From the NCBI GenBank assembly GCA_043228905.1, contig JBHGNT010000017.1:12710001-12774000 (forward strand): a stretch of DNA of 64,000 nt, read 5' to 3'. The first letter of the stretch is position 1. Each line of letters starts with the position of its first letter. Positions 2,209-59,700 of the stretch are shown here, piece by piece. This DNA comes from Azolla caroliniana (Eukaryota > Plantae > Polypodiophyta). Below the pieces are notes generated by a model, which ran no database searches, was not told the DNA's origin, and saw only the letters and a program-made list of their open reading frames with translations. The position numbers and the translations under genes are program-made.

Positions 2209-4645
2209 ACTACATGAATAGGCAAGAAAAACCCCACAAGAAAAAGACCCCCTTTCACCACCTCACTCTTCTTGCTTTATATGAAGTTCTCCTCTAGTAG
2301 ATAAGTTTCGCTTGCTTTCTTTTCCACGCTTTTTTTAGAGCTTTTCCATCTCCTATTCATAGTTATGACACAACGATCTTCTAATCGTCATATCTCCCTC
2401 ATCCATGCTCCAAATTTAGAGTTTTAAAAAGCTACGGATAGCTCTCTTCACAACCTTTCTAACCCATATTTACACGTGATATTTGGGTGTCAAACGAGAG
2501 AGTTATGAGCATTTGTTTCTGACTGCGTTTTGGTGGTCTGCTTTTTCTCTTTTTAACTTTTCTCCATCTTTATTGCTTTTATTTGGACTTATCCACGAGA
2601 TGTTAGTTCATGTCCTTGTCCTCCAAATGTGAATCCTCCATACCTTATATTCTTTTAGTGTCCAATGGCTTGAATTCTAAAAACAGTTTCACATTTAGCC
2701 CTCCCCCTTGCTTCTTGGTGAACCATTTATGGTGAACCCTAAGCTACTAATAAAACTAAAGGTTCTCCTTCGCCTTATTCATGGCTATAGACAAAGAAGG
2801 AGATAATAAATAAATAAATAAAAACAAATGATGTGAGTAAAACCCCCGCTAGTCGGTAGGAAAAACCTCACACTTCTAAACACACACACATACACATTGA
2901 CAATTGCCATCACCATCTTTCTCCTTGTCAACACAAAGAAAGAGGTTACAACAATTAGTATATCTTCATCAACTTTCCAAACAGAAGTAGGTCTATGTGA
3001 TACATAACTCTTGATAGAAGTAAGCATGTTAACATATGAATAAATCTTTCGAGCGAGCGAACCTTTTGTACAAATACCTTCAAAGCTTCGAGACTTGTCA
3101 GAATTGTCATATTTTGAATTATGTCAATCTTTGCTTCATCAACATGACTTTCTTCTTGGCACACCACATTCTCCACATTACCTTGTTTTTTATGTATGAC
3201 CATTTCATCTAGAATCTCATCTCGAAAAGGAAGAAAAAATAAATCTCGTTTGGTTGACTCATTCAAGGGTTGGAAGTTAACGTCTTTCTCCTTTGGAACC
3301 ACAACAATAGGTGATATACACTTCAAATCCTCCATATGATAAATGAAACTCTCTTGTAACAATGCTTTATGATCTTTCTTTTGCACAACCTTAGATTCTT
3401 GAAGAGTTTGGGCAATTGGTACCTTCAATTTGATAAGGTCTTTGGAGCAATCTTCTCCTTTTATATGTGAATAGACATTTATGAGTAATTTTGGAAACTC
3501 AAAAAGAAAAGAACTAAACCTTAGATGCTCTTCTCCTTGGATATAGCTTGAAATCATCTTCTCCAAGGTGATAATGCTTTTCTCTTCAATGACTTCTTCT
3601 TCCTCCTTAGACACCATGTGGAATGATTTGTTTTCCCTATCCCACGAAGATTCATCAATTGTTATGCTTTCCTCTTCTTGATTGCCATTGTCGATAGATG
3701 ATTCCTTCTCCTTTATACATTTGATTAGTTGTGGTGGATCCTTTGATGGTGATAAGTTCATGATACTCCAATCATGCATTGCAAGTAATTCTCTTTGCTC
3801 TTGATCAAATTGTTGTTGAAGAGTTGATGCCCACATAACTTTGTTGCTACTCAATGCAAATCCAAAACATAAATCATGCACGAACACCTTCATACACTGC
3901 AACTTGGCACTTACCAATGCTTCCTTACACGCATTGATCTCCAAAAGCCAATCTCCAGCTATCACTTCTAGGTTACCTTCTTCATCTTGCAACTTCGTTG
4001 TGGGTACTTCACCATCAACAACTTCTTTTGTCATATCTTCCATTTCATCTTGCACATATTCATCATCAACCACCATATCGCTTGTTGTATCAATAATGTC
4101 CTCAACATGATGTACATTGGCATCACCATCCATAACATCGCTTCTCATAACAATCTCCTTAGATTCGTCTTTCACATCATCATTCTTTATATCATGGTTG
4201 TCCTCATGAACTAGATGGGGGAACTCCACATTCATCACCTCTTCTTCATTGTCTCTGGAATCACCTTCATAGACATCATTATAACTCCAAAAATTAGAAT
4301 AATGATATGAGGGAACCTGTTGAATCGGACATTGCAAGTAGGCTGGTTGTTGGCTCATGACCGATCCACAATTATTATATCTTGGATTTATGGTATATGA
4401 CGCCGATACTCCATATGCTTCATCGAATAACAACTTCTTCAATTGTTGATCATAACTTTGACATACTCGAAGCAAATCATGGAAAGACCTTGGGTACTTC
4501 ATATGCACTTCATATTGAAAATATGGATCTAGCCCTGCTTTGAATCTTTCCATCTTGAAGTATACATCTTCAACGCCTCCAACAAGTCCAATCCAAGTGG
4601 ACCATATATCCAAAAACGTCTTCTCATACTCGAGGTAGCACATTG
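2209..4645 (-). mobile_element. Degenerate gypsy-derived element: gag/RT-remnant ORF, PPT-like tract (~2698-2710) and probable partial 3' LTR (2693 leftwards) interrupted by element A
   Basis: The ORF carries Gag-like FKAGLDPYFQYEV...PRSFHDLL and RT-like CISPIVVVPK...NFQPLNESTKRDLFFLPFRDEILD. On the minus strand CAAGGGGGAGGGC precedes TGTGAAAC. Confidence 0.55.
2955..4645 (-). pseudogene. Chimeric Gag C-terminus + acidic linker + RT remnant without catalytic core, in one open frame
   Basis: This is the part of the 712-aa ORF from CYLEYEKTF onward. The ORF's N-terminal part is only antisense read-through of element A'. Confidence 0.55.
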
Positions 4646-5659
4646 GTGCGATCGAAAGGCAACGTGAGACCGAAGAGACGGAAGGTGGCGGAGAGAAAAC
4701 GAATGTCGAAGCCGACGAATACGATGAAGAGATAGCCGAGAAGAATGCTAAGGGTGAAACTACGAAAGAAGGTAATACCGAGGATTCATGCCAACAATAT
4801 CTAGAGACTTCGGCGGTTGTGTCCGAGAACCAACGTGAGACCGGAGAGACGGGAGATGGCGGCGAGGAAGGTAAAGTCGGAAGTCGGTTCGGATGGAAAA
4901 TGATCCATCCGAAATTCCAACCTAAAAGAAAGTGCGACAATGCGGAGGTCGGGTCTACGACGGGAGAAGCGCGTAATACAGAGCACGCTCTACGGCGAAT
5001 AAAGAAACGCGTGTTATGGCGAATAAAGAAGCACGCGCTACGGCGAGAAAAGAAGCATGCATTACAACCACACGAGGACCGAACAACGAGCACATATCGG
5101 AGGACCTACGTAGCGAACAACGGAAAGAAGTGCCGAAAGTCGAACCGGACAAGGCAGGTGAAAACGAAGAAAAGAAAGCAAATCCGGACGAAAAGAAAAG
5201 AAAAGAAACCGACCCGAAAGAGCACTGAATCGGTAAAAACCGATCAACCGAGTCTGGATCGACCGAATACAAATCGGAAAGGAAGCCGAACTAAACGAAA
5301 GACGATCCGATGAGACCGAATCGGAAGTAAGCTAATCCGACTAAACCGAAAATCCGAAAAGAAGTCAAGATTGATGAAGAAAAGAAATAGGGCAAGAAAA
5401 GATACTACCGCGGATGACAAGGACCAAGCGGGCCATGCAAAAAGCGAACGAAGACTATGGTGGATCGGATGTCGACAATGGTTCGGGTGGAAAGAATGGA
5501 TGTGCTCCAAATGGAGAGACAAAGTCAACATAACAAGAGAAGTCGAGGGTACTACGAGCCGGCAACGAAACCAATCGGGTAGAGACCGGACGGAGGAGAC
5601 TAACAAACACCAACAACTTCGGCACATACCGGAGGATGTGCGGGTTTGGAGGGGGTGAG

Positions 5660-40582: not shown

Positions 40583-43500
40583 TCCGAAACCGAGGAAGAA
40601 CCGACGGGCGGAGAATGAAGGTTGGACCGGTTTTTCTCCGTCCCAACACAATCTGGCGCATGCCGGTGGATGTGCGGTTAGGTGGGGGCGGATGTCGTGA
40701 AGAAAACCGTCCACAAGCAGAATCGGTGCACCGGAGCGTAGGAACCGGCTCTTCATGCACGTGCACCTTATGTTGTGCATAGGAGATCCTAGGCAGGCAG
40801 ATTCGGTAGGTAGGAAGTAAAGGGGAAACGGCTCCTTCCTTGCCTATAAAAGGAGGGAGACGAGGAGGGGCGAAGGGATCGCGGAGAGTCGAGGACGAAT
40901 TGCTGTCGGTTTGTGTGCCAAGGCTTCTCTCTCTCTCTGGTTCGCAAACTCCATAGCTTCCTTCTGTGCAGGTTTCGGGAGGCTCGCGTTGCTCTGAGGA
41001 ATGCCCGAGTGCTTCCGACAGCACCTCCAACCTACTCCTTCCTTTCTGTGCGTTTACGAACAGGTATCGGCATCTGTTCGCCGGCCTGTTCGGTTGTAAC
41101 CGACTTCGTGTTTTGTTGTTTGTCTTTGTTAATGCACACATACATTCGTGTCTCTCTGTGTCGCTGTCCCACTCACTTCTTTGTGTCGAAGGGCCGTGTC
41201 CCTGTGAATCTACTCTCCCACGTAGTGGGTCTCTTCTCCTCTCTCTCTTGTTCTTCAGTGCAGGACCCCCGAGGTCCCGCCTCATTCCACGCATCCGCGA
41301 GGAATACCTCGACAGCGTTCTAGTGCTCTTTTCCGGGATTGTTCATGAACCGACTCACCACTCCGATTGCAGATCTAATATTTGGCCAAGTGCACACCAT
41401 TCAATACATTAGACTTCCGACTACAAAGGAATATGGAATCTTCATCATATCCATCTTCTCTACCTTTGCCTTTGGGATTGGCTTTCCAGATAGCTTGCAG
41501 TTTGGAGGGAGTGTCGATCCGACATGTTGAACCATTGAAGCAGCTTTATCACGTACTTCTCCTATGACATCCACAACAACTTCTTCGACCGGTCCCAGAT
41601 GATGTGCATCCCCTAAACCTGTCTTGCTGGACCCCAGTCTTTCATTGAGAAGGTCCGGTTTAGGGCCTTACTCAGCATGTGTATCTTGACTTGGTCTCAT
41701 CTGACGATCAACATGTCGTCAACGTCCAGAAACAATATCAGGAAATCTCCTCCGTCAAATTTCTTCACAAACACACAATGATCAGCTTGCGTCTTGTGGT
41801 ACCCTTGATCCATCATGAAGGAGTCGAACTTCCAGTACCATTGCTAGGGGGCTTGCTTCAAGCCGTATAAGCTCTTCTTCAGTCGGCACACTAGTTGTTC
41901 CTTCCCTTTCTTCTCAAATCCTTCCGGTTGATGCATTTAGATCTCTTCTTCGAGGTCACCATGTAGGAATGTCGTCTTGACGTCCAATTGCTCTGCCTTG
42001 AGTTCCATGCTTGCCGCTATGCTCAATACCCTCCGGATGGATGTCATCTTTACTACCGGGGCAAAGATCTCATCGAAATCCACACCTTTCTTTTGTTAGA
42101 AACCCTTCACCAAGATTCGGGCCTTGTACCTCGGTGGATTTCCGGCATATACCGGTTTCAGCTTGTACACCCACTTATTCCAGAGTGCTCTCTTTCCTTT
42201 CAATAGCTCTGTCAATTCATATGTGTGGTTCTCATGCAGGGAATCCATCTCGTCCTGCATGACACTTAACCACTTGTAGGTGTGGGTGTCTTTCTTTGCT
42301 TCTTCGAAGCTTTCCGGCTCCCCCTCATCGGTCAGCAATTCGTGCTCTGCATCTGGAAATCTCCAGGGGCTCTTCTCTCTCTAAGAGGGTATCTTCATCC
42401 TTGGTTTTCAGAAACCAGTTCATCTATTTGTTCCAAATCCGAATCTGTTTCAGGGTCTTGTCCGGTTCTAGTTTCAGCTTCCCCTTCTTCTTCTTTGATC
42501 GGTTCAGTTTCTACTCCGAATCCGGCCAGTTCTTCGAGTGTCATCCGGCTTCCGGCCGGAATGGTCCTCAGCTCCTTCAGTTGATCTTTGCCTGTCGACC
42601 CAGAATTCATTATCCTTTTCTCAGACTCCCTGTCGACAATGGTCTTGTCCTCCATGAAGATATCGCCGTATCCAAGGAATATGCATGGTGTGGACTTCGG
42701 ATCTAGCTTTTCTCTCTTGTCCTTTGCAACATGTGAGACACCCGAACACCTTCAGATGCCAGTAAGACACATGTTTACCGGTCCATACTCTCTGTGGTGT
42801 GTCTCCGTCCAAGGGTGTTGAGGGTGATTTGTTTATCACATACGTCGTCGTCATCAGTGCCTTAGTCCAAAACGTCTTGGGTAGCTTTACATGTGCCAGC
42901 ATGCTCCGGACTCTCTCCATCACGATCTGGTTCATCCGTTCGGCCAGCTCATTTTGTTCCGGCGTCTTCGGCATAGTGAATTCGAGTTAGATTCCCTTCG
43001 ATCAACATTACTCCTCGAACTGCCCCCGGTACTCTCCTTCGATATCTGCTCGAACAGCCTTCAGCTTCCGACCGGTTTCTCTTTCCACTCTCGCATGGAG
43101 TTCCTTGAAGATAGACAACACCTGATCCTTCGTCTTCAACGGTGAGACCCACAACTTTCGGCTATGGTCATCTATGAACATCACGAAGTACTGCCATCTG
43201 GCATGTCACGTCATGTCCACTTGACACACATCGGTATGCACTAGCTCCAGTGGTGCATTCCGTCTCCTCGGTGGTCTTGATTGGAAGGAGGTTCGGTTTT
43301 GTTTGGCGGCCAAGAAATCGGTGCACTTCTCAAGATGCACGTCTTTCACCTCCGGAATGAGGTTGTCTTCAGCAAGTCTTCTCATCCGCTTTTGGCTCAT
43401 ATGACAAAACCTTTTGTGCCACAGCTCACCGGTAGTGTCGGATGCTACATTCACTTCTTCCCGGCATATCCGAGCATGCATCAAATACAATGTCTTGATC

Positions 43501-45321
43501 TTCCGGGCTCGAGCCACAATCAGGCTTCCTTTGCTGAATTTCATGACTCCGTTCTGGATGCTACCCATGTAGCCTTGATCATCTAGCCGACCAGTTGATA
43601 TCAGGTTCAACCAAACCTCCGGAACGTGTGGGACTTCTTTCAGCAGTAATTAGCATACGGTTGATGTCGTCAACAACACATCTCCTATGCCCACAATTCG
43701 GCATGTACCTTCATTCCCCATACAAACACAACCGTGATCTCCGGCTATGTAAGTTGAGAAGCATTTCTGGTCCGGTGTCAAATGGAACGACGCTCCAGAA
43801 TCGAAAACCCAGGTCGTCTCGTTGCTGACAAGGTTGAGCTTGCTCTCCTCAACAATGAGCATCAGTTCTTCTTCACTTGTCACGATCGCCAACATTCCTT
43901 TTCTCTCCGAACCTTTCCGGTCCGAACCCTTCTTCGAATCGGCACTGTCGGTTTCTTTCTCTTTCCGGAAATGCCCAAAGTTCTTTTGGAAGTGCCCTGG
44001 CTTCCCATAGTAGAAGCAAGTAGGCCCCCCCTTGACTTCGACCTCGTCCCCGATTTGTCCTAGTTTTGGGGACTCCGATACCATCCTCTTCCCTGGTTAT
44101 GGTCATCTCCCGTGACCAAGGGCTTCGGATCGGTTCCGGACTCCCGGTCCTTTCGGCGAGCTTCTTCATCTAGCATGCTTGATATTACTCTTGCTAGGGA
44201 CAACTACTTTCCTTCCGGCCCAGCATTGCCCAAAGTGACAACTAACGTCTCCCAACTATCCAGGAGGGAACCAAGCAAGAGCAATGCAAGTACCTCTTCA
44301 GCTAGAGGTACTTCAAATGAAGTTGTTTGATTTATGAGCCCCTGAAATGCATTCACGTGCTTCACCATGCTAGATCCGTCCTGGTACCTGAGTCTCACTA
44401 ACTTCCGGAATACCGAAACTTGATTTACGGCATTTTTACTCTCCAACATGGTGCCGATTTTCTCCCAGAGCACATGAGCTTTACTTTCTTCATTGAAGTT
44501 GTTGTACAGGCTCATGTCAATGAAGCACCAGATGTACATCGTTGTCTTCATGTGCATCACCTCCCATGTTGCGGCATCAATCTTATCTGGTTTCTTGTCC
44601 ATGAACTGTACCGGCAACCAGAGATCTTTGACCATAATCATGTCCCTCATCTTCGACTTCCACTCTGGGTAGTTGGAGTTAGTGATTTTCAACATGCCGC
44701 CGAATGATTCTTCCATTTCCTTTGTTTGCTCTGATACCATATTTTGCAAAAATAACGCTCGGCCACAACCGAGTCTTCAACAAGGAATAGAGGAGAACAA
44801 ACTCAAATCGAGATGACATAGGATGTTAACGTGGAAAACCCTAAATAGGGAAAAACCATGAGAACCCACAGACTCCAAACTATCACTATATGCGAGAGGT
44901 ACAATCAGAGACCTGGAGGCAATGACCTCGAGCTCTATATCTTCACTAGCCGGCGGTTACAACAAAAACTAGTTCTGTATCTCTCTCTCTCACTCGCTCT
45001 CTATATACAACGATATACAACAACTCTAATTACTACACTCAAGTGATTGCCCTGACTCATATTTATACGTATATGACTTTAGGGCTATTTACAAATATAG
45101 CCTCGATGGGCTCACCATGAAACATATTTACACATATGTTCTTGGATCCGGTTTGCACCGGATCCATTCAGATTCACTTGATCCGGTTTCCGGGTCTCAT
45201 CCGAAACCCTTCCGGATCTGGTTCCTTCATCCGGCTTGTCCGGTTCTCATAAGGAACCCTTCCGGATCCGGTTCCTCTGGTTCTCATCTGGATCCCATCC
45301 GGAGGGACCGAATTCCCAACA

Positions 45322-45551
45322 ATCGACTACATCGAGACTCCGTCATTGTGGTGGGTCAACACTTGTAGCCTGTGCGCCGGCACCAGGTATGACTCGACAC
45401 CATGACGGTCGGTCATATGGGACGTCAATCGAGGCTCGAGTCCATCTCGATCCCTTCGCTCGGGTGGATCGGCACCCTTCTTTCTCTCTCTCCTTTCTTA
45501 TTAATCAATTATATCTTTATCATATGCTTACTTTAGATCATAGCTCTAACA
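45322..45551 (+). repeat. 3' part of an LTR (ends CTCTAACA), interrupted by element F
   Basis: Reverse complement of 45663-45900. Confidence 0.8.
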
Positions 45552-47338
45552 ACCATGATTTCGACTTGTCAAATACTACATCTCAGCTCACTCAAACTTG
45601 TTTTGTTCGAGGGTTATAGCACTTATAAACCTTTTGCTCATGTGAGTAGTCGAGAAGGATACTGTTAGAGACATGAACTAATGTAAGCATTAAATAAGGA
45701 TAGAATATAGATAAATAGATAGAAAGGAGAGAGAGAAAGAAGGGTGCCGATCCACTCGACCACCCCCGAGCGAAGGGATCGAGACGGACTTGAGCCTCAA
45801 TCGGCGTCCCATATCACTGTCGTGGCGTCGAGTCGTACCTGGTGTTGGCGCGCTCGCTACAAGAGTTGACCCACCACAAGACAGAGTCTCGACGTAGTCA
45901 ACCAGATGCTCAAATGAGGGTAGCTAGGCCTCTTATTTATAGTGATACCCAAGGCCCCCAGGCAAGTTCACACTTGGCCTAATGGGTTGTCTCAATCCCG
46001 AGGATTAAAAGTAATCCTCCCCTTCTTTACACTCTCGTTTAACCCTCACACTTATCCACGTATATAGAATACTACGGTAAATTCTCGCCACGGGATATTA
46101 TATGGTCATGCCCGTAACAGATACACTTCTCCGACTTCATGTCCAGCTTTCTCCACCTCTCATCCAGCCCATGCACATAGACAATGTTGTTGAATACCCC
46201 TAAGGTCTCGTAAATTCGGCTTATGCCTGAAATATAGCTCGTGTGCTGACACCTTATCCCCAATCCGGTTTTGGATGTAGACGGTTGTGCGGACCCCCTC
46301 GGCTTGTAGAACTTGGGCATGCTTTTATCCTCAAGCATTACCCTTGCCGCCTCCATAATCTATTCGCCAAGTGCAACCATGGTTGTCCAAGAAGTAAGTG
46401 GTATGCTCCCGGAGCGTCAAAGACCAAGACTACCGCCGACATGTCCCTTTGTCAAGTGTTGTTGAGCTCTTGCCGGAGCCACAACTTCCGGACCGTTGTG
46501 CTTGCCGTGAAAATATTCTTTAAATTCTCCCAAGATTCTTTCGACATTTTTTCATCCTTGATGTAGCCGAGCATCTGGTCATGCACACAGGACATGAGGC
46601 AGTACAACACTCTGCTCACTCCTTGCTCCCATGCCGGGAAGTCCTTGTGTGCCATCTCCGACGCTACTTCATTCACTCCCTCGACATAGCTCCAATAACC
46701 GTGTCCAAGCAGCAACTGGTGCATCTTGTAAGACCAAGATGCATAATTGCTTATGTCGAGGTTCTCCGTCGGAAGCGAGTTTATCATTCTTCTGTCCATT
46801 CTTTGTTAGGTCCGTTCTCTTTCCCAGAAGTTACGTTTTCTTTGGTCTACTTAAGCTTTCTGTAGGCAACAAAGACTTCTCAACCCTCACACTCTAATAC
46901 CATGAAAAGAATTATGTGTGGAAGCTTGAGGACCTAACTAACTTCACTGGATGTTAACATAAAACATACACAGGTTTAATGGAAGCTTCAAAACACACAG
47001 AGAATACATGAGAGAGATAGAGAGAACAAAACAACATAAAATCAATTCAAATTAACAGTCTATACATACAATGTGCTCAGAGAGCACTTTTATACAAGTC
47101 CTTAAAAGGACTGACAAAAGTACCGACATGTACTTCAATTCTCATACAAGCAACTGACACTAACTCCAAGAAATATGCCTACGTACTAGGTTGGGACTGT
47201 AGGCCTCTAATGGCTTACCGGTTGCAATCTAATCTGGTTCTCAGATCCGGCTCTTGGTTCCGGATACCGATCCGGACACCAATCTAGTTCTCAGTTCTGA
47301 ACTTCGATCCGGATCCAGTTGAGCTTGTCCACTCAACA
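45552..47338 (-). mobile_element. Deleted Ty1/copia of the H-like family (5' LTR 47338-46903, PBS 46902-46891, gag and IN remnants)
   Basis: ENLDISNYASWSYKMHQ; KLDMKSEKCI; TGGTATTAGAGT. Confidence 0.85.
45663..46119 (-). mobile_element. Solo LTR with a 5-bp TSD
   Basis: TGTTA...TAACA termini with GATAC on both sides (45658-45662, 46120-46124). Minus-strand CTATAAATA. Confidence 0.9.
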
Positions 47339-49971
47339 AGTATAAATATAACTAGGGCAAAAATATTACACGTTGTTGTCTTTGAAAAGTGCTATTGTAA
47401 CTGACAGAGAGGGAGGGAGGGAGAGAGAGAGATTCAGAGATAGAGAACATGGTTGTTGCCCTATTTATTGTCTCCGGAGTGTATACCTCCTGTTACTATA
47501 GTGATTATGTTGGGAGTCTGCGAACTCCCATGGTTTTTCCCATTTAGGGTTTCCACGTTAACATCTTTTGTCGTTTTGCCTCTAAGTGAGTGTATGTGTG
47601 AAATATTCTGATTTTCTATCTTGTGCTTGAACCTCATTGTGGTCGAGGCCCATTCTCTATCAAACTAGTATCAAAACGAAGGCTCATTACCTTCAAGCAA
47701 AAGAAAATGGAAAACTCATTCGGCAGAATGTTCAAATTAATCGGCGCCAACTATTTTGTGTGCAAAGACTTATGGTTGCCAATGCAATATGGCAAAACTA
47801 GGCCTGATGAGATTGATGCATTGACTTTGGAAGTGTTGCATCTGAAGGCGACTGCATACATAAGATGCTTTATAGACATGAGTCTATACAACAACTTTGA
47901 TGAAGAGACGGATGTTGACGTCCTTTGGAAGAAGATTGGCATAATGTTTGAGAACAAGAACGTCGTAAACAAGGTCTCAATTTTAAGGAAGATCATGAGA
48001 CTCCAGTATCAAGATGGCATAGCGGAGCATGTGAATGCTTTCCCAGGACTAATCAACCAAACCACTTCTTTGGAGGTACCTCTAGCCCACGAGTTACTCA
48101 CATTACTATTGTTGGGATCTCTTCTGGATAGTTGGGAGACGCTCGTTGTCACATTAGGCAACACCAGACCAGAAGGGAAGCACTTATCCTTGGACAAGGT
48201 GAGGTCAAGATTGCTTAACAAAAAAGCTCTTCCTAAGGACAGAGAAGCAACCTCTGACCCAAAGGCCTTAGTCATGGAGGGTGACATGAATCGAGGAAGA
48301 GGCCGGAATAGAAGTCCCCAGAATCAGGAGAAGTCTGGGACTAGGTCGAAGTCAAGGGGGAGGCCCACATGCTTCTATTATGGGAAATCAAGGCACTTCT
48401 AGAAGAATTTCCGACAGTAAAGGAAAGAGAAAGGGGTAGCAGATGGTGTTCAACAGAAGAAGATTCCAGACAATAAGAATACCTCTGCAATCACCACAAG
48501 TGAGGAGGAGTTGTTATTCATCTGTGAGCAAAGCAAGCTGAATCTTGTCGGTGATGAATCGACATGGGTGGTTGATTTGGGTGCATCATTTCATCTTACT
48601 CCTGACAAAGGATGCTTCTCATCGTACACAACCAATGATCACGGATATGTGAAGATGGGAAATGACGGCGCATGGAAATTAGTCGAAATCGGGGAAGTGT
48701 ATCTGTAGACATCAACAAGTTGTAGAATGGTGTTGAAGGATGTGCACCATGTTTTAGACATCAGATTGAATCTGATATCGACCGGATGGCTTGATGATGA
48801 AGGTTACAGTGGTACCTTCCAGAATGGCACCTGGAAATTCTACAAAGGAAATCTTATTGTGGCCCGTGCCCAAAAGCAAAGTACTCTATACATGATGCAT
48901 GCATGAGTGAACCGGAATGAGGTGAATGTGGCAGGTGACACAGCCCATGAGTTGTGGCATAAGAGGCATGCCACATGAGCCAGAAGGGGATGTAAATGAT
49001 AGCCGAAAAGTAGCTCATACTAGAGGTAAAGAAAGTGCATCTAGACTAATGCCTCGATTGCCTGGCCGGAAAGCAAAATAAGGCAGTTTTTAAGATTGCT
49101 TAAAGTATGAGGCACTTCATCGGGGGTTGTTTGGGGTGGACTCAAGTTTAGATCTTATTTGTATGTCTAAACCTAAGTAGTGATATAGTTTTAAGGGAAT
49201 AGAAAAGCAAGGGCATGGGTGGGGGGGCTAGGGGAGTGTAGCTTGTTTAAGATATCAAAAGTATTTAAACCTAATCAAAGTTTTTAGAACATATTAAAGA
49301 TCATTGGGATAACTTAAGTTTTTAAACACCAATAGAGTATTATTAAAACATCAATGTAGAGTATTATTAAAATGGGACCACACGCTTAGATGAAAGGGAG
49401 TTGTTTAAACACATGCTTAAACAAACATTTAAAAGAAAGATTATTATAAATAAATAAATAAGAGAGATTGGGATTAAAAATGATTATGGTTAAGAAGGGA
49501 TTATGATTAAGGGGGAAGGGGTTGCTAAAACAAAGTACTTAAACGAATGTTTAAACAAATACTTAGATAAAAAAACTCTTGGGCAAACACTTAAAGAAGG
49601 TTATGATTAAAAGAGAAGGCAGGGATTATGATTAAAGAAAAGGGGTCATGGCTAAGAAGAGGATGATTATGATTAAGAGAGGAGAATACTTCAACAATTG
49701 TTTAAACAAAAAGTTAGACCAAAAAAAAGATTGAACAAGTATTTAAAAAAAGGGGTTAAACAAGTACGTAATAAAAATGATTATTAAACAAGTACTTAAT
49801 AAAAAATGATTAAATAAATACTTAAAAACTTAAGACAAAAAAATTGACAAAAAAGTGATTAAACAAGTACTTAATAAAAATTGATTAAATAAGTACTTAA
49901 GAACTTAAGACAAAAAAATAGATAAGAGCAACACATAGAAGGAACGAAAGTTTTACTATCATAAGGCAACG

Positions 49972-50017
49972 ATCGGCAAATACATTTCGCCTCGATGGAG
50001 GCTCTTCAGTGCTCGAT
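49972..50017 (-). ncRNA. Minimal type I hammerhead ribozyme
   Basis: ATCGAGCA-CTGAAGA-GCCTC(CATC)GAGGC-GAA-ATGTAT-T-TGCCGAT: CUGANGA and GAAA core, 5-bp stem II, quasi-palindromic stem III, 7-bp stem I with one bulge. Confidence 0.8.
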
Positions 50018-50078
50018 GTACAAATGATGAAAACTAAGCTTACTAGGTTGCTCTTTTTATAGGGAGAGGGAGGAGAGA

Positions 50079-50617
50079 CCCTTGTATGTGGGATATACAA
50101 AAGTGTGTACAAAGGGAAGGTAAAAGAGTGTACACAAGACTTTAGGTGGGGGTTAAGAGGGGTGAGAGTACTCAAAATTTTAGGTGGGGGGGAATAGGAG
50201 TGAGAGTACTCAAAACTTTAGGTGGGGGGAAAGGATGACTGTACTAGGTGGTTTCTTAGTTTTTTACCATTTAGCCAACATGTAGGGAACTATATTGTGG
50301 TTGTCCCTTGTATGTGGGACATACAAAAGTGTGTACAAAGGGAAGGTAAAAGAGTGTACACAAGACTTTAGGTGGGGGTTAAGAGGGGTGAGAGTACTCA
50401 AAACTTTAGGTGGGGGGAAATAGGGGTGAGAGTACTCAAAACTTTAGGTGGGGGGAAATAGGGGTGAGAGTACTCAAAACTTTAGGTGGGGGGAAATAGG
50501 GGTGAGAGTACTCAAAACTTTAGGTGGGGGGAAAGGATGACTGTACTAGGTGGTTTCTTAGTTTTTTACCATTTAGCCAACACGTGAGAGGGGGTGTAAG
50601 GGAACTATATTGTGGTT
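50079..50617. repeat. Partial tandem duplication (50079-50302 vs 50305-50617) containing a 38-bp G-rich tandem array
   Basis: GAGAGTACTCAAAACTTTAGGTGGGGGGAAATAGGGGT units start at 50390, 50428, 50466 and 50504. Confidence 0.9.
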
Positions 50618-50920
50618 ATCCTAGGAGAGGTTTAAGTTTGTTTCTCACGAGCGCTCCGATTTGGAGTTTTTTGATACATGGGGAGTAACGAAGCTTAAAA
50701 ACAACGGTGGAGGTTTTTTGTTGTTGGGTTGGTTAGAGAGTAGTTGGTTTCGTATAGACTAGGGGACGGTCGAAAAACACTTGAGTAGGAACTTCGACGG
50801 GTAGCCCCTAGCTCTTAGTCGGTCGTAGAACTTTTTGCGTAGTTCCTTGTAGCCATTTTCCGAGCTCTCTCGGATAGCATACCGTTTTAGTTCTCCCGTG
50901 ATGAAACCCTTTTTGTGTGC
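50520..50920 (-). pseudogene. PLE reverse transcriptase C-terminal region (stops, one frameshift), ending ...NGKKLRNHLVQSSFPPT-stop
   Basis: Manual translation continued beyond ORF 50759-50965. Confidence 0.7.
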
Positions 50921-51154
50921 TATGGCAAAGTCACATGCTAGTGCACAATATTTTGTGACCTTCATAGATGACTACAAAAGGAAATTATGGGTCTCCACAT
51001 TGAAGACAAAGGACCAAGTGAAGAGTGGAAAGAGAATCTGGACAAAAGCGGAAGGCTATCCGGACGGACAATGGAGGGGAGTACAGAGGGCAGTTTGAGG
51101 AATACAGTCGAACCCAAGGAATTCAGCTGGAAAACACTTCACCGAAGACTTGAG

Positions 51155-54100
51155 GGAATCGGACCGACCATAGACGAGTTCGCGGAGGCCTTCGCCGGAA
51201 GGTAGATTTACTCGGTCGGTGATCTGTACTCGGGGTATGACCAGTTCCGACTAGCCGTGGAGAGCAAAGACATTACGACGATGCGAACTCCCCTCGGCCT
51301 AGTGCGAATGTGTACCCTGCCACAAGGAGGGACCAACTCGGTGGCCCACATGGTAAATGCAATGAACAAGGTACTGAGGGATTGCATCCCGGACATCACC
51401 ATACCATTTCTAGACGACATCCCGATCAAGGGGTGCCTGGTGGAAGAGAAGGACGAGACACTCGGGCCGGACGGATGCCGGCGATTCGTGGCAACACACA
51501 TCGACGACTGCGAGAAGGTGCTACAAAGGCTAGAGGTTGCGAGGCTCACCTTCTCCGGGGAGAAATCGGCCTTCGGGCAATCAGAAATCCTGGTGGTCGG
51601 ACACCTATGCGGACCATATGGCCGGAAGCCGTCTCCGGCAAAAGTAGAAGCCATCTCCGCGATGAAGACCGACTGTAGCTCGGTTACGGAAGTTCGGAGG
51701 TTCCTGGGGGCGTGCGCATTCTACCACATATGGATCCCGCATTACGCCCACGTTGCGGAGCCGCTATACGGGTTGCTGAAGAAAGGGAGAAAATTCGAGT
51801 GGCGAGACGAGCACACGGAGTCGGTCCGGAAGCTGAAGGAAGCTCTTGCGGCAACACCGGCGCTCCGGAAGGCTGTCTACGAGAAGGGTACCCCGGTATA
51901 CATAACGGTGGATACGAGTCCGACCGGGATCGGATGGGTCGTCAACCAAGAAGACGAGGACGGCATTCGGTTCCCGATCCGATTCGGCACGAAGGTCCTC
52001 AGTGAGCGACAACGAGGGTACGCCCAGGTTAAACGCGAACTCTGGGGTATCGTTTCGGCAGTAAAGGCCGACAAAGACTACCTGATCGGGAAAGAAGTGA
52101 TTATCGAGACGGATTGCCTCCCGGTTCTCGGCATGGTTTCCGGATGCGTGACACCGGACCTGGCGATGCTCAGGTGGGTAGCATATATCAAGTCCCTGGA
52201 CCCGGAAATACGACACATTTCCGGAAAGGACAACGCCATGGCCGACATGCTTTCGAGGGCGAGGTTTGATGACGAGGGTGGCATGGTTTTGGAGGATGAA
52301 GAAGTCGGCATGGACTTTTTCAAGGCAGCGTACGTGACGACCGATGGGACGAGCACTCCGGCGCTTAACGGCTTCGACGAGAGCAAGTATGACGGCGAGT
52401 GGCTCCAGATCGGTGGTTTCTTAAGGACAATGACATCGGATGCGTCGTGGACGAGGGACGAGGCCAACCGGATCCAGAAGAAAGCATACCGATTCTTTCT
52501 CTGGGACGGATACTTATGGAAGTACCCGAAGAAGAGGAACGACGTCCCGCTCCGGGTGGTGGCGATGAAGGAAGAACGGGAGGAGCTGCTGACGGCCTAC
52601 CACGACAGCGCTTGGGCTGGACACCGTGGAACGTGGGCCACGTTCGAGAAGATAAAGGGGAAGTACTGGTGGCCGGGACTGTACCGGGACGTGCATCGGT
52701 TCGTGACAACTTGCGAGAGCTGTCAGATGCACTCCATAGTCCGACATCGGGATGAGCTTCACCCTATGTACCCTCCGACCATCCACTTCAAATGGATGGT
52801 AGATCTGGTGACGATGTCGATGGGGGTAGGACAGATGCGGTATCTGGTCCTGGCTCGGGAAGATCTGACGAACCAGGTGGAAGGCCAAGCCCTTCAGAAC
52901 AAAACGACCGCGGCCGTATGTCGGTTCCTGATCGAGGACGTGATATGCCGGTACGGGTGCGTCGGGAAGATCGTGGCTGATCGCGGGGAGTTGGATGCCG
53001 AAGAGGCCGAGGAGTTGTTCGACCGGCTAGGAGTCAAGCTCTCACTTACCACTGCGTACAATCCGGAGGCGAATGGGAAGGTGGAGCGCGGACACAGACC
53101 GATCGTCAAGGCATTAGTTCGGGCATGCGGAGGTCAAGTCGGGAACTGGCCGCGGCTGTTGCCTTACGCGTTGTGGGCGGACGGAACTACGCACAGTTCG
53201 GTAACCGGATTCATGCCGGCAGAGCTCATGTTTGGGCAGAAGCCGATCATGCTGATGGAACGTACGATCTCCTCATGGGCAACCGTGGACTGGAAAGACG
53301 AGATGAGCCGGGAGGAACTGTTGGCGGCGCGCATACGACAGCTCGAGCGAAGACCGGAGGACGTGGAGTAGGCTGCGGGAAAGCTTCGGGTGGCAAGGAC
53401 GAGGAACAAAGCCCAGTTCGACCGGACGCACTGGCTCCGACCAAAGAAGATCGAGGAAGGCGACTGGGTGCTAGTCTACGACAGCAGCCTCGTCAACCAG
53501 CACCGAGTGACACGGAAGTTCGCAAGAAGGTGGTTCGGGCCTTACGTGGTACAAAGCGCCAACGACAACGGGACGTACCACCTGGCGGAGCTCGACGGCA
53601 CGAGAATGGCGATACCGGTAGCTGGGAAGCGGATCAAAGCGTTCAAGAAGCGTCACGACGACGAGCCGGATCCGGTTAACCTGGACCACGACGACGAACG
53701 ATCCGAAACCGAGGAAGAACCGACGGGCGGGGAATGAAGGCTGGACCGGTTTTCTCTGTCCCAACTCAATTTGGCGCATGCCGGTGGATGCGCGGTTAGG
53801 CGGGGGCGGATGTCGTGAAGAAAACCGTCCACAAGCGGAATCTGTGCACCGGAGCGTAGGAACCGGCTCTTCATGCACGTGCGTCTTATGTAGTACATAG
53901 AAGATCCTAGGTAGGTAGATCCGGTAGGTACTTAATGGGAAACGGCTCCTTTCTTGCCTATAAAAGGAGGGAGACGAGGAGGAGTGAGGGATCGCGGTGA
54001 GAGAGGACGAAGTGCTGTCGGGTTGTGGGCCGAAGGCTTCTCTCTCTTCCATACTCCGTAGCTTCTTTCTGCACAAGGTTTCGGGAGGCTCGCGCTGCTC

Positions 54101-54430
54101 TGAGGAATGCCCAAGTGCTTCCGGCAGCACCTCCAACCTACTCCTTTCTTTTTGAGCGTTTACGAACAGGCATCGGCATCTGTTCGCTGGCCTGTTCGGT
54201 TGTGACCAACTTCGTGCTTCTTGTTGTTTGTCCTTGTTAATATATATATACATACATTCGTGTCTCTCTGCGTCGTGTCCCACTCGCGTCTTTGTGTCGA
54301 AGGGCCGTGTCCCTGTGAATCTACGCCCACTCGTAGTGGGTCCCTTCCCTTCTCCTTTGTCTCTTGCTCTTCGGTACAAGACCCCCGAGGCCCCGCCTCA
54401 TTCCATGCATCCGCGAGGAATACCTCGACA
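51155..54430 (+). mobile_element. pol: Element E: 5'-truncated copy of the D family (pol 51155-53737 with TAGs at 51202 and 53369; 3' LTR 53811-54430)
   Basis: Near-identical to 38036-41314. LTR TGTCG...CGACA is followed by GCGT. Confidence 0.95.
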
Positions 54431-56362
54431 GCGTGAATCGAGAATAAACATCCGACCCTCTCTTCGTCCACGTGCGATGAGTCAGCCCTCTTTTTCGATG
54501 AAGCAACCGCCTTGATTAAATCGAACTTGCATCCCTTGCTCTACAATTTGGCCGACGGAGACCAAATTCTTCGTAATGGCCGATACATGCAAGACATTTT
54601 TAATGTAATTTTGCTTACCTTCTTTTCCGAACAGAACATTGCCAATGTGCCGAATCGGGTGCGTAGTGTCGTCTCCGGTTTCGACATAGCCGGGTCGGTC
54701 CGGCTCTCGAAGTTCTTAGAACCATTCTTGATGCGATGTCATATGGTTTGAGGTACCGGAATCGACGAACCATACGTCTTCCGGGTGTGTTGAGGTAGCG
54801 GCTGACAGATTTTGCTCTATGTTTCATCATGAACATTCCGCCATTGTCGGAGTTGTGCGCATACATTCCGCCATGATCTTCGTACTCGGAGTTGTGCCCG
54901 TACATTTCACCACGGTAGGAGTTGTGTGCATACATTCTGCCATGATCTTCGTAGTCGGATTTGTGTGCGTAATTCGTGAGTTGTCGGCTTGTGGAAGCCG
55001 ATTCACGCATCTTCTTTCAGCACTCTTCTTTGTGGTGGCCGAGCTTTCCGCAATATCCGCATTTGGTTGCGTTTTGACGGCTCGGGCTAGAGTGGAAGCT
55101 CCCCCTTCTTGCGAAGGTTCCTCATTGGCCTCCGTTTTGCAGCCGAAATTGGGAGTTGTTGTCATAGGTCGGACCTTGTTCGCCTTGTACTTGGCCGAAT
55201 CGGCCTCTCGCTCGTCCGCGTCCTCTTCCTCCATTAGAGTGCGTGTAGAGCATGTGGCCTTCCAACTCATTGCTCCTTGTACGCACGTGGTTTTCTTCGA
55301 CCAATAGCATTGATTGGAGCTCGATAAAGGAGGGAGATTTCTCCCGTGCTAGGCCGCCGAGGCATATTTGCACCATCTCATCATCATCTATACTTACGCT
55401 TATTGAGCCGAGCAAGTCGCAAAGTTCCTTGATCTTCAAGGTGTATGTCGTGATGGACATGTCCCTTTGTTGAATGTTGTTCAACTCTTGGCATAGTTGA
55501 AGCTTCCTCGTGGTCGTGTTGGCGGCGAAAATCTTTCGTAGATTTTCCCACGCTTCCTTTAGCGTCTTGGCTTCTCGAATGTAACCGAGCATGTGGTCTT
55601 GAACACATGTCGCCATACAATACATCACGCAGCTTGCGGTTTGCTTCCATGTCGCGTATCTGGGAGCTGCTTTGGCGGGTTGATCTTCATGCGCTCCTTT
55701 GATGTAGCTCCAATAGCCTTGTCCGACAAGGTATTGGTGCATCTTGTACTCCCAAGATGTGAAGTTGTTTCGATCCAACTTCTCGGTAGGGAGAGCGCTC
55801 CCCATTTGAGTATTCATTATGTTGATTCTTCTTCTTCTTCTTCTTCTCTCTTCGAATGCGAGCTATGTAGCGAAGCTACGATAGCTATGAGCCGGTTCTT
55901 GGTCGTCGGCGTGGAGCACAACACACGAGCTCGATGAGGCAAATGGGCTAGATCGAGCTACCAAATTACTCTGATACCATGTTAAGAATCAAGAGATGGA
56001 TTCTTGTGAAGCGGAATAGGTGTGAACTGTGTGTGTATGAGAGAGAGAGAGAGAGAGAGTGAGTGAAACACAGAGAATACGCAAGGTAAAAGTATATTGA
56101 CAAAGGAGAAAGACTCAACATTGTACAAGGAGGGAGGAGGGTGCTTTATATAGTCACCCTCTCTCTTCATTAACTACATGACTCATGAAGAGTGGGGAAT
56201 GTTAAAGCTCATAAGTTATGTGTCATAGAATATGATTCTATGACTCATACTAAATGTTAGAATACAAAGTGGTGATTTAATGGTGACTCTTGACCGTTGG
56301 AGTGTCTATTCACTCTCAAGGTGAGTTCACACACTAGACCAAGTTGAGCTTGATTCTCAACA
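54431..56362 (-). mobile_element. Ty1/copia of the H-like family: 5' LTR 56362-55980, PBS 55979-55968, gag-protease remnant
   Basis: EKLDRNNFTSWEYKMHQYL; TGGTATCAGAGT; TGTTGAGAATC...TTAACA termini. Confidence 0.88.
54835..54980 (-). repeat. 30/39-bp coding repeats (HNS.YEDHGGMYA) in the copia gag-PR linker
   Basis: GGAGTTGTG..CATACATTC recurs four times. Confidence 0.7.
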
Positions 56363-56799
56363 TATGTGTGTGTGTTTTTCCGGTTAGCTTAGGTGTGGAT
56401 ATACGTGTGTGTGCGTTTCCGGTTAGCGTAGGGTTCAAGTGAGGGTGCGTGCGTGGTTGCCGAGGTAGGTGTGCCGGTAGTAACCGGGTGTATATGTGTG
56501 TATGTGACCGGGCTATGACCCGCACCTCTTTTGAGGCCCTTGTACATACGGGCAAGAGGGTCGTGTGGATACGCCCTTCTTTCTAGAGTCCGGGTTGTTT
56601 CCGAAATGCCTCCGGAACGGTTCGGATCGGTCTTCCCCAAACATATCCCGGGATTGATCCAGTTGGCAACGTGACAGACTTCGGAGGATTCGGCCTTCCG
56701 GAGACTCCTCTCCTCCTGGTCCATGACCCCGGTGGTCCCGCTCGGATCCGACATGTAGGCGCAGGATTCTGCGACAACGATAATCGGACTTAGCCATGT

Positions 56800-59700
56800 A
56801 GCTTATTTTACCGGTCTGATAAAATCGAGCCTCAGCAGCTTGTCGATTTCTTCTTTGACTCTCACTGCATAATTCGGGTTCATCTGGTACCTCCATTGCA
56901 TTATCGGTTTCGCGTCCTTGTTGAGTTGAATTTGATTGTGGTATAGTTGGGGATCCAACCCTCGCATAACTTCTTATGACCAGGCGAACACGTCTTGAAA
57001 TTCTTTGAGCTCTATTGTTGCTTTCTTTTCCTCCGAGAGCAATTCCTTTGCCACGTACACCGCTTTTGGTGCATCCTCAGTCCCAAGGTCCACCTCTTCT
57101 AGTTGAGATGCCTTCACTTGTTGAGATACCGCCATTTCTCGTTCCAACGATTCTTGTGCTTGTCGTAGTTCACGGATCGCCTCCCAATTTGGCTCCTCAT
57201 GGACTTCCTCTGAGTGCATGACGTACGGTGTGACGGCTTCGACAATATCTACTTCAAATAACGGAACTATCTTTGGGTGTTCATCTAGGTAGCGGTCGAC
57301 TTCGTCGTCTGTTGATCCATCCAACATGTTTATGCTCTTTGCATATAATGGTGGTAGCTCCTTACTGGTACCCACACGTGGGTGGGTCGAGACCCGTACC
57401 TTCATCTTTCCTCTGTAGAAGGTAATTACTAATGATGTTCCTCTGCCTATTTTGCTTTATATGTGTTGTCCTTAGCCATGGTCTCCCTAACAACAGGGGA
57501 TACGCTCCCTGTGCATTGAGTTGCAAGACTACCACAGATATCATGAAATCATGCCCACCAATTGTAATCTCCAAGTTCCGGATGAGTCCGGTTGGCCGAA
57601 CCCAACTGATATCTGCCATACGCAGCCAGAACGGCCATGGTTCCCATTCTCTGATACCTACGTTGTCGCAGGTTCGTTGGCTTATCACGTTTACTCTAGA
57701 ACATAGAGACTTTGTGCTTCAATGTATGAATACCCCTTCTTAGGAAGGAGACATATATCAAAAACACATGTATACTCTGGTCCCATAGGTCAAAATTGGC
57801 CTCTTTATGGACGATAGAAATTCCAATTCTAATTCTGATTCCGGTTATTTCTTTTCCTTTAATGATAGCTATTATTGTTGGATTACTGGTGTCCACTATT
57901 GCCGATGTCGCGAAAATACGACGAGGATACGTGAACGTTGAGGCAGGACCCCGGGGCCTTTGATTAGAGGATATCAGATTTGTGTATTTATGTACTAAGA
58001 ATTAACCGAAATGAGAAAGATTAACAAATTTCATTAACAAGTAGAAAGAAAGATTACAATCAATCCCAAGATTGGGATTACAAAAGTTTTATCTTAAGGA
58101 GATTGCTAGAATAATAGATTAGAAGAAACTAAGATATGGATTCCATGGAGATTTAGGGTTCTTGGCTTTCATAAGAGATTATGGTTATATGAGTATTACG
58201 GCTTCCGTAGGGAAGATTAACGTTTTTGAGTGTTATGGCTTCTGTAGGGAAGATTAGGGTTTACTTAAGAGATATGGCTTCGATAAGATAAGGGAGCTCC
58301 AAAGGAAAAGAAAAACAATATAATATGGAGAGTCCCAATATAGGAAAAAAATAGAATATATATGGTGTTCCCCGTTGATCATATGCATGTCTACTTTTTG
58401 TTGCATGGCCTCTACTTTTAGTTGCATAGCTTCTTCTTTTAGTTGCATGGCTTTTTCTTTTTGTTGCATGCGACCGTCCACATGACCTTTACTTTTTGCA
58501 TGCACTCCAACTTTAGTTGCTTGCGTCCACATGGCCTTTACTTTAGTTCTCTTCACTTTACTTTAGTTTGTTGCATGATCCAATCTTCCGTCCGTCTGCA
58601 TCCAACCTCGTCCGGTAGCCGGTTCCGCTCGATCACCGAATCCCTCGCCGACCGGTTCCGTTTTGCTTGCCGGCCGGTTCCGGTTCTGGTTTTGCTTGCC
58701 AGTTCCGGTTCCGGTTTTGCTTGCCGGCCGGTTCCAGTTTTGCATACAGGCCGGTTTCCGGTTTACATACCAGTTCCGGTTCCAGTTTTGCTTACCGGCC
58801 GGTTCCGGTTTGCTTGCCGGTACCGGTTCCAGTTTTGCATACCGGCCAGTTTCCGATTTGCATACCAGTTCCGGTTTTGCTTGCCGGCCAGTTCCGGTTC
58901 TGGTTTTGCTTACCGGCCAGTTTCCGATTTGCATATCGACCGGTTTCCGGATTTGCTTACCGGCCGGTTTCCGGTTTTAGGGAATTTGGCCACCATCATC
59001 CATCAAGACAAAGTGGCCAAAGTGCTCTTAGCACAAATGAATAATGAGGGAGCTCAAGGTGCTTATATAGCCAGGGCCTTAACTTTCCTATCTATGTGGG
59101 ATAGTTCTAATTTCCCTATCTTCTCAAACTTTATTTTGACATAACTTGATATGTATTTCTCCATTTTGTATATAGTAAAATACATTTTGAAGCTCTTGAG
59201 TATATCCATCTTTCTATAGTAAGATACTAATTTAATCTATAATAATTATTTCATTATTTTTTTACATAGTGTGTGAAGATTCACACGACACCGGTCCTTC
59301 CTTTGGGTTGGAAAAGAAGGCCGGTGTTGGCTCCAGGTTTTTTAGCCCTATCACCGATTGGAGTCATTCTGTAAATCAAGGGACTAACTGTAATACACGA
59401 CCTAGTGGTAGCATGATGTGACATTCTTGTAACGCTTGATAGGTTGAGTCATCATCTGTGGTTTCTATTAGTGTTCCCGAAGGTTTGAGCTGTCGTCGCA
59501 GCTCGACCGTGTTTCATTCATTGGCTTTCTCTATCCATTCGGTAGCCTGCTTTCAGATGGCCTCTTGAGTCTCCCACTCGGTAGTTTTCCCTTTAGCTCT
59601 TGTGGTGACTTGTTGAACGTCGGTCACCTCTACGGTTACCATATTCACCACCAACTGCTTTTCGTTGGTCTTGCTCGGGTAATGACTACTATAATGTCCT

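Follow-up and report, generated by a model that had tools for sequence, protein, structure and literature searches.

Interstitial copies of an endonuclease-lacking Penelope-like element family in Azolla caroliniana carry junctions suggestive of insertion at double-strand breaks

How does a retroelement without an endonuclease enter the interior of a chromosome? The question is raised by a Penelope-like element (PLE) in a 64,000-nt stretch of Azolla caroliniana DNA (contig JBHGNT010000017.1, positions 12,710,001 to 12,774,000; hereafter the window), where an AT-rich minus-strand insert splits a copia element. PLEs lacking an endonuclease (EN-minus, as opposed to EN+) are regarded as mostly restricted to the ends of chromosomes, and the insertion of the few dispersed ones was left open (PMC8557442). 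A first-pass annotation had described the insert as a PLE whose reverse transcriptase (RT) stops after the thumb without a C-terminal GIY-YIG endonuclease, accompanied by an encoded peptide, repeats, a TATA box and a hammerhead. The insert and these features are all present, and the early stop is true of the whole family, intact copies included. The family's architecture, its lack of GIY-YIG, its interstitial spread, a 3′ end that varies over no more than 5-10 nt, irregular target changes, microhomology and telomeric filler were all observed. We consider it probable, at roughly two chances in three, that the family inserts endonuclease-independently at double-strand breaks.

The 361-bp end of the window's open reading frame (ORF), used as a query, had 41 matches in the plant's own genome, the other 40 at 93-96% identity. 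A 16-nt pattern from the 3′ end had 56 exact genome matches (control: 0) and a pattern from the 5′ untranslated region (UTR) had nine. The full unit measures 5245 bp (locus L036), and copies occur as partial tandems with variable-length pseudo-long terminal repeats (pseudo-LTRs), as 5′-truncated copies and as inverted pairs. Most are 97-98% alike, and 10 of 15 full-length RT frames are free of stops. The motifs GLDF, DKN, FDVVSLYPSI, GTAMGS and YIDD identify a PLE-type RT with thumb. It has 294 homologs, EN+ PLEs among them; a PDB sequence search with the RT gave no match. Three loci (L112, L115, L122) are truncated at the same point, unit position 1047, which implies that a single partial tandem was duplicated afterwards. 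A look for transcripts listed no RNA data set containing the element, and assembled contigs from one run of guessed type covered part of the element's 3′ half, mostly below 95% identity.

Upstream of the RT lies ORF1 (655 aa), rich in Pro, Ser and Thr at both ends around a predicted helical core, which the RT frame overlaps in −1. At about codon 484 of ORF1 a slippery heptamer, A-AAA-AAC, precedes a hairpin (−14.6 kcal/mol, z −3.5). In every sister family this heptamer, there with a stronger hairpin, closes ORF1, and the signal is retained with a compensatory C-G to U-A change in a relative of 78% identity. A −1 frameshift is thus predicted to yield an ORF1-RT fusion. Both frames were intact for such a fusion in none of the full units read in the plant's own assembly, and in one contig from another assembly (L196). 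At L031 (C13:8.84 Mb) a 1-base indel near the slippery site places ORF1 and RT in one frame of 971 codons, and relatives in Closterium have natural single ORFs of about 1040 aa.

In intact copies, as in contigs from independent assemblies, the RT stopped at the thumb tail, and none of the full-length copies recovered continued into a C-terminal GIY-YIG. The N-terminal GIY-YIG that the annotation had proposed looking for was not found in full units L036, L032, L038, L042 and L196. Pfam detected no GIY-YIG in ORF1 or ORF2 (control P0110 was positive), and PF01541 was found in none of 38 longer relatives. A PLE GIY-YIG profile had no match in 196 own-genome sequences (1.15 Mb of loci) or in the 56 closest metagenome loci; five distant EN+ loci were detected. 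Genome-wide, PF01541 had one match, in a spliced exon, which we take to be SLX1, and a PLE endonuclease query had one weak match (E 0.04). The CxC motif and the IFD (insertion-in-fingers domain) were also absent from the family, with RT3-RT4 spacing like that of the non-IFD rows in Craig et al. (Fig. S1). Their absence excludes Naiad, Chlamys and PLE-X. Of the two possibilities left by the annotation, the N-terminal-endonuclease Chlamys/Naiad type thus falls and the EN-minus type stands.

The best named RT matches were in Cryptomeria (42-45%), Selaginella moellendorffii (41%), Ginkgo and Picea, with Closterium at 37-38%. In two trees, built without named fungal Coprina, Athena or Chlamys sequences, the family, four sister families and vascular-plant proteins (Selaginella, Ginkgo, Cryptomeria, Picea) formed one clade, with support of 99 in one and 100/97 in the other (53 selected rows). 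Closterium was adjacent to this clade and proteins with a C-terminal GIY-YIG fell outside it. The RT grouped with a Selaginella protein matching the published Selaginella reference motif, and the “Selagine1” RT3-RT4 row of Craig et al. (Fig. S1) has the same RT4 signature, GTAMGSNFAVVYAC, as the family. EN-minus PLEs are listed for Selaginella, Pinus and Picea in a review table (PMC9033089). Judged by RT sequence, the family groups with this known EN-minus, probably Coprina-type plant lineage rather than with Chlamys/Naiad. The annotation's suggestion of an unreported plant PLE therefore holds for the family and not for the lineage, already known from Selaginella and conifers.

In addition, the family shows the RT motifs, partial tandems with pseudo-LTRs, 5′ truncation, inverted copies and hammerhead expected of the PLE order. 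The C-terminal GIY-YIG of Penelope/Poseidon, Neptune, Nematis, Hydra and Dryad is missing. With Athena it shares two ORFs with a (predicted) frameshift, not the rotifer-specific RT clade or the telomeric site. With Coprina it shares the lack of an endonuclease, the DKN motif and the hammerhead. It lacks the location at chromosome ends with ORFs facing the centromere and, at the 3′ end of its RNA, the telomeric repeats in reverse complement that serve for priming. Since these two features are defining, the family should be considered a variant rather than a member of Coprina. The sister EN-minus families (L094-L108; e.g. C400, C22:8.95 Mb, C12:9.62 Mb, C21:5.92 Mb, C4:8.70 Mb), at least four in number and with RTs 43-44% identical, are also largely interstitial, and some occur as young arrays of full units, head to tail, that repeat every 5.6 kb. 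A Picea glauca “mitochondrial hypothetical” gene product (P0132, KUM45112) is an RT of the EN-minus clade.

The type I hammerhead was conserved in 36 copies. The sequence of its helix II varies among relatives with pairing retained, and helix III is short and palindromic, with one C>U change in the window copy. Cleavage is predicted 3′ of position 49979, and a dimer form is also predicted; the monomer fold by itself was not significant (z −1.5), and an Rfam scan of 48500-51500 had no match and did not detect the hammerhead.

Junctions were read from 53 loci. One copy from L140 and one from L109, for which no 3′ end could be mapped, were dropped together with the pseudo-LTR read-throughs L158 and L161, which left 50 including that of the window. 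The non-telomeric site that the annotation had noted for the window proved to be general: none of the 50 3′ ends on chromosome-scale contigs lay within 1.7 Mb of a contig end. The nearest was at 1.75 Mb, and against 4.7 expected none was closer than 1 Mb (P 0.007 under a uniform model that ignores repeat density). Six of 34 inspected contig ends had arrays of the genome's telomere repeat, TTTAGGG, and the family was found behind none of them. No telomeric repeats occurred at the 50 3′ junctions, and no examined copy ended at the two to three CCCTAAA units about 240 nt into the 5′ UTR. The telomeric priming tag is missing in the families of this genome and present in a related subfamily from other assemblies (L207, L208, L232), where CCCTAAA directly follows the 3′ motif as a canonical telomeric tag. 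One copy of sister family B (L178; C7, first 8 kb) adjoins a telomere array and faces the telomere, opposite to the orientation of fungal Coprina, and its inner 5′ junction with a subtelomeric satellite contains G-rich telomeric filler.

A colinear empty-site or self homolog was available for 28 of the 50 insertions. Seven were dropped as ambiguous, owing to a later insertion (L137), a weak 5′ match (L148, L039), two-endedness (L153) or repeat arrays (L167, L142, L032). The 21 colinear cases comprised 12 target deletions of about 10 bp to 0.9 kb (raw offsets of 5-932 bp, tail included), three near-flush joins and six duplications of 206-887 bp. One further duplication, of 18 bp (L033), brings the duplications to seven. 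In L037, L038, L111 and L151 the duplicates are 99-100% identical and start at the 3′ junction.

The 3′ end itself is fixed: AATCTT followed by 5-11 nt of A-rich read-through was found in 48 of 50. A CGCAC(A/T)C motif lies about 25-45 nt before the element end in all five families; with the fixed end it is consistent with internal initiation as in the EN+ Poseidon PAc (PMC11167929), and it may act as an RT-initiation signal. Microhomology of at least 3 nt between tail and target was present at 7 of 20 clean 3′ junctions against a null of 9.5% (P 0.002; 7 of 27 junctions were not clean and were left out). Over 45 sites no target consensus emerged beyond an A at the first shared base. At least two telomeric units were present at 3 of 50 5′ junctions, against 0.014 expected. 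In L033 G-rich units lie on the upstream flank inside the 18-bp duplication and are missing from the duplicate; in L169 they lie on the upstream flank beside a deletion of about 140 bp and are absent from three empty homologs. The same G-rich filler was seen in sister copies L098 (with a duplication of about 115 bp), L101 and L178. Two outward-facing 3′ ends were found at each of two loci, L153 and L042. At the 5′ junctions of L037 and L172 the upstream flank ends like the 3′ motif of another PLE subfamily, which suggests template switching or two-ended capture between families.

A course of events compatible with these junctions can be proposed. Transcription would start at the TATA box in the upstream pseudo-LTR and read into the next unit, and the −1 frameshift would make the ORF1-RT fusion. 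The RT may bind near the CGCAC motif, initiate in the AAAAAAGCG stretch and prime on free 3′ ends of pre-existing breaks, helped where 1-4 nt pair with the DNA end. The truncated cDNA would be linked to the other break end by end-joining of the host, resection of that end producing a deletion, and staggering or re-copying a duplication. Brief extension of the other end or of the cDNA end by telomerase would add TTTAGGG filler; such filler would be expected if RT primes on one end of a break and telomerase now and then lengthens the opposite end or that of the cDNA.

Several points weigh against insertion at breaks. The empty sites are paralogous repeat copies (75-98% alike) and not pre-insertion alleles, so that some deletions may pre- or post-date insertion. 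The third 5′ junction with telomeric units (L173) has them C-rich and lacks an empty site. Most chromosome ends are unassembled (six telomere arrays at 34 ends), and the genome searches score the best candidates (56 of 433 in one), so a divergent EN+ PLE could escape. Long duplications are also made by endonucleases, as in Dualen LINEs (long interspersed nuclear elements; median 900 bp, PMC9977147), and EN+ Penelope copies can be duplication-free and joined by microhomology (PMC3846280). Furthermore, paralogous repeats contain four pairs of insertions whose members are 0-27 bp apart. Two independent insertions, L154 and L039 (elements 98%, flanks 91% alike), entered paralogous gypsy copies at one and the same base. 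This base falls 9-10 nt downstream of a stretch of 10-11 nt that matches the 3′ end of the element itself, which random breaks fail to explain. The other pairs are 4-27 bp apart: L034 and L139, in opposite orientations on either side of a hairpin with a 7-bp stem, L159/L097 and L165/L096. General RNA-guided targeting by upstream homology was considered and rejected, such homology being unsupported as a rule (5 of 36 against 8.8%, P 0.2). The close pairs may therefore mark places where capture is favoured, fragile sites, or the action of a structure-specific nuclease.

Ordinary target-primed reverse transcription with a nuclease borrowed in trans (LINE APE or RLE, an EN+ PLE that escaped detection, or a structure-specific nuclease of the host that cuts hairpins or RNA-DNA hybrids) would account for this site reuse, both at the hairpin and beside the self-homology, and for the seven duplications of 18-887 bp. 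Sources could include ORFs at L106 that are LINE-like by their motifs. We nevertheless regard it as unlikely, because deletions exceed duplications (12 to 7), most sites show no TT/AAAA-type consensus, no PLE-type GIY-YIG was found, and telomeric filler points to long-lived free ends. Less probable still is that originally clean junctions were made irregular after insertion, through illegitimate deletion, segmental duplication or errors in repeat assembly. Copies do sit in nested repeats, several duplications lie within tandem arrays, and of the apparent 5′ junctions at least one stems from an LTR that inserted later (L160/L161), with four more suspect. However, the high similarity of most copies and their open RT frames speak against it, as do the four long, near-identical duplicates beginning at the 3′ junction.

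A novel nuclease hidden in ORF1 or in the low-complexity N-terminus of ORF2 seems very improbable. ORF1 bears a conserved PxSLRIxPP motif and has no characterised homolog (its three homologs are all close relatives), nor any atlas match. Its conserved core is, however, predicted to be all-helical (a low-confidence model with pLDDT 57, spanning 235 of 655 residues) with no fold match at E<=0.001, the Pro/Ser/Thr-rich remainder is unconserved, and coil-rich ORF1s are normal in EN-minus PLEs (PMC13159263). Inward movement of telomeric insertions by rearrangement, although favoured by the telomeric location of the lineage in Selaginella and fungi, the CCCTAAA units in the 5′ UTR and those after the 3′ motif in L207, L208 and L232, is the least probable and largely refuted by the colinear flanks, left and right flank belonging to one host repeat in 21 cases. 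Telomeric repeats adjoin none of the 3′ junctions, and the copies are young.

We lean slightly towards a wider view, in which an ancient streptophyte EN-free PLE lineage (Closterium, Selaginella, gymnosperms and the source plant) left the telomere in this plant, losing its priming tag and spreading autonomously through the genome, normally by a break capture in which it competes with telomerase and short RNA-DNA pairing influences where it lands. If so, it would be a natural telomerase-related RT that writes kilobases into any free DNA end. The telomeric filler suggests that telomerase and the retroelement most closely related to it work at common breaks, which would bear on the origin of telomerase and on sequence loss and duplication at plant repair sites. 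Because one genome offers about 50 young junctions of interstitial copies, together with RT frames that are intact and four sister families, capture at breaks can be put directly to the test. The literature searched, mostly titles and listings, contained no report of fern PLEs or of break-type junctions of EN-minus PLEs; earlier EN-minus PLE work may mention internal copies.

The window copy (Table 1) is 89-96% identical to other family copies. Its annotated peptide is real and ends at the true family stop (50522-50520), 9 of 12 long loci finishing in FPPT-stop, two having earlier stops and one no long RT frame. As reported, however, it had been stitched across a TAG (50761-50759), a 1-bp deletion (~50708) and a TAA (50618-50616). 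Because of these two premature stops and the deletion, the copy is dead. The tandem repeats and the partial duplication including the ORF end are likewise present, and peculiar to this copy (1 of 50 examined). The internal duplication was rejected as a pseudo-LTR and is probably a copy-specific template jump, with a 4-nt joint at ~50306; a second set of 38-bp repeats (50126-50233) lies inside it. The TATA-like box, a putative promoter, is 38-39 nt from the hammerhead core in four sister families. About 70 bp of copia target are missing at the insertion, without target duplication (16 of 17 colinear homolog pairs). The surroundings (42000-58000) consist of nested decayed copia and gypsy elements, with a second copia of the host's type at ~42100-44900 on the minus strand.

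Table 1. Features of the window copy and its host site (positions within the window)
Feature	Position	Strand	Remark
Host copia, left part	47540..49091	+	gag to integrase start, decayed
A-run tail	49087..49091	-	read-through into next unit's first bases; overlaps target bases
5′-truncated decayed copy, EN-minus PLE	49092..50925	-	unit positions ~3739-5245 of 5245-bp unit, plus internal duplication; A-run follows
Degenerate CGCAC(A/T)C motif copy	49102..49115	-	conserved near 3′ end, all five families
AT-rich, internally repetitive 3′ UTR / pseudo-LTR body	49116..49971	-	
Type I hammerhead motif	49972..50017	-	
Hammerhead helix I	50017-50010/49978-49972	-	
Hammerhead helix II	50002-49989	-	then GAAA
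Hammerhead core CUGAAGA	50009-50003	-	
TATA-like box TATAAAAAG	50053..50061	-	52 nt upstream of hammerhead core
Internal duplication	50079..50306	-	ORF end and first 3′ UTR; GGAC microhomology joint
38-bp repeat, 4.8 copies	50352..50534	-	expanded in window copy only
RT ORF 3′ end	50520..50925	-	thumb and C-terminal tail
Host copia, right part	50926..51150	+	integrase; gypsy begins ~51150

Among known systems, the closest are Sm1 and Sm2 of S. moellendorffii and the conifer EN-minus PLEs, which share the DKN motif, the lack of IFD and endonuclease, the type I hammerhead and the partial tandems. The Selaginella elements are described as telomere-associated (PMC4209133, PMC12477314), whereas the present family is interstitial and has no telomeric 3′ repeat. 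The fungal two-ORF Coprina-1_Alen and Athena similarly combine a coil-rich ORF1 with an RT in ORF2, a frameshift link and no endonuclease (PMC13159263, PMC8557442), but all 13 copies of Coprina-1_Alen lie at chromosome ends facing the centromere, and none of this family do. PLE-X, an EN-minus Chlamys subclade of Chara braunii and Selaginella, also has a hammerhead and is spread genome-wide in Chara (PMC8557442); its authors declared the insertion mode unknown in that text. Unlike our family, which has neither motif nor a fixed target, PLE-X carries both CxC and IFD, and in Selaginella its target is 28S rDNA. Endonuclease-independent L1 insertion resembles the proposed route in its target deletions, microhomology and proposed break repair, interstitial telomeric insertions included (PMC1920257, PMC2246262). 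L1 uses this side route rarely (21 loci), while here it would be the main one and would proceed from a fixed 3′ end. Finally, in vitro, reverse transcription by the EN+ Poseidon PAc begins inside the RNA, at a fixed site that lies downstream of the pseudo-LTR, leaving a “tail” (PMC11167929). That element cuts its own target and initiates without homology, whereas the family described here lacks an endonuclease and is enriched in microhomology.

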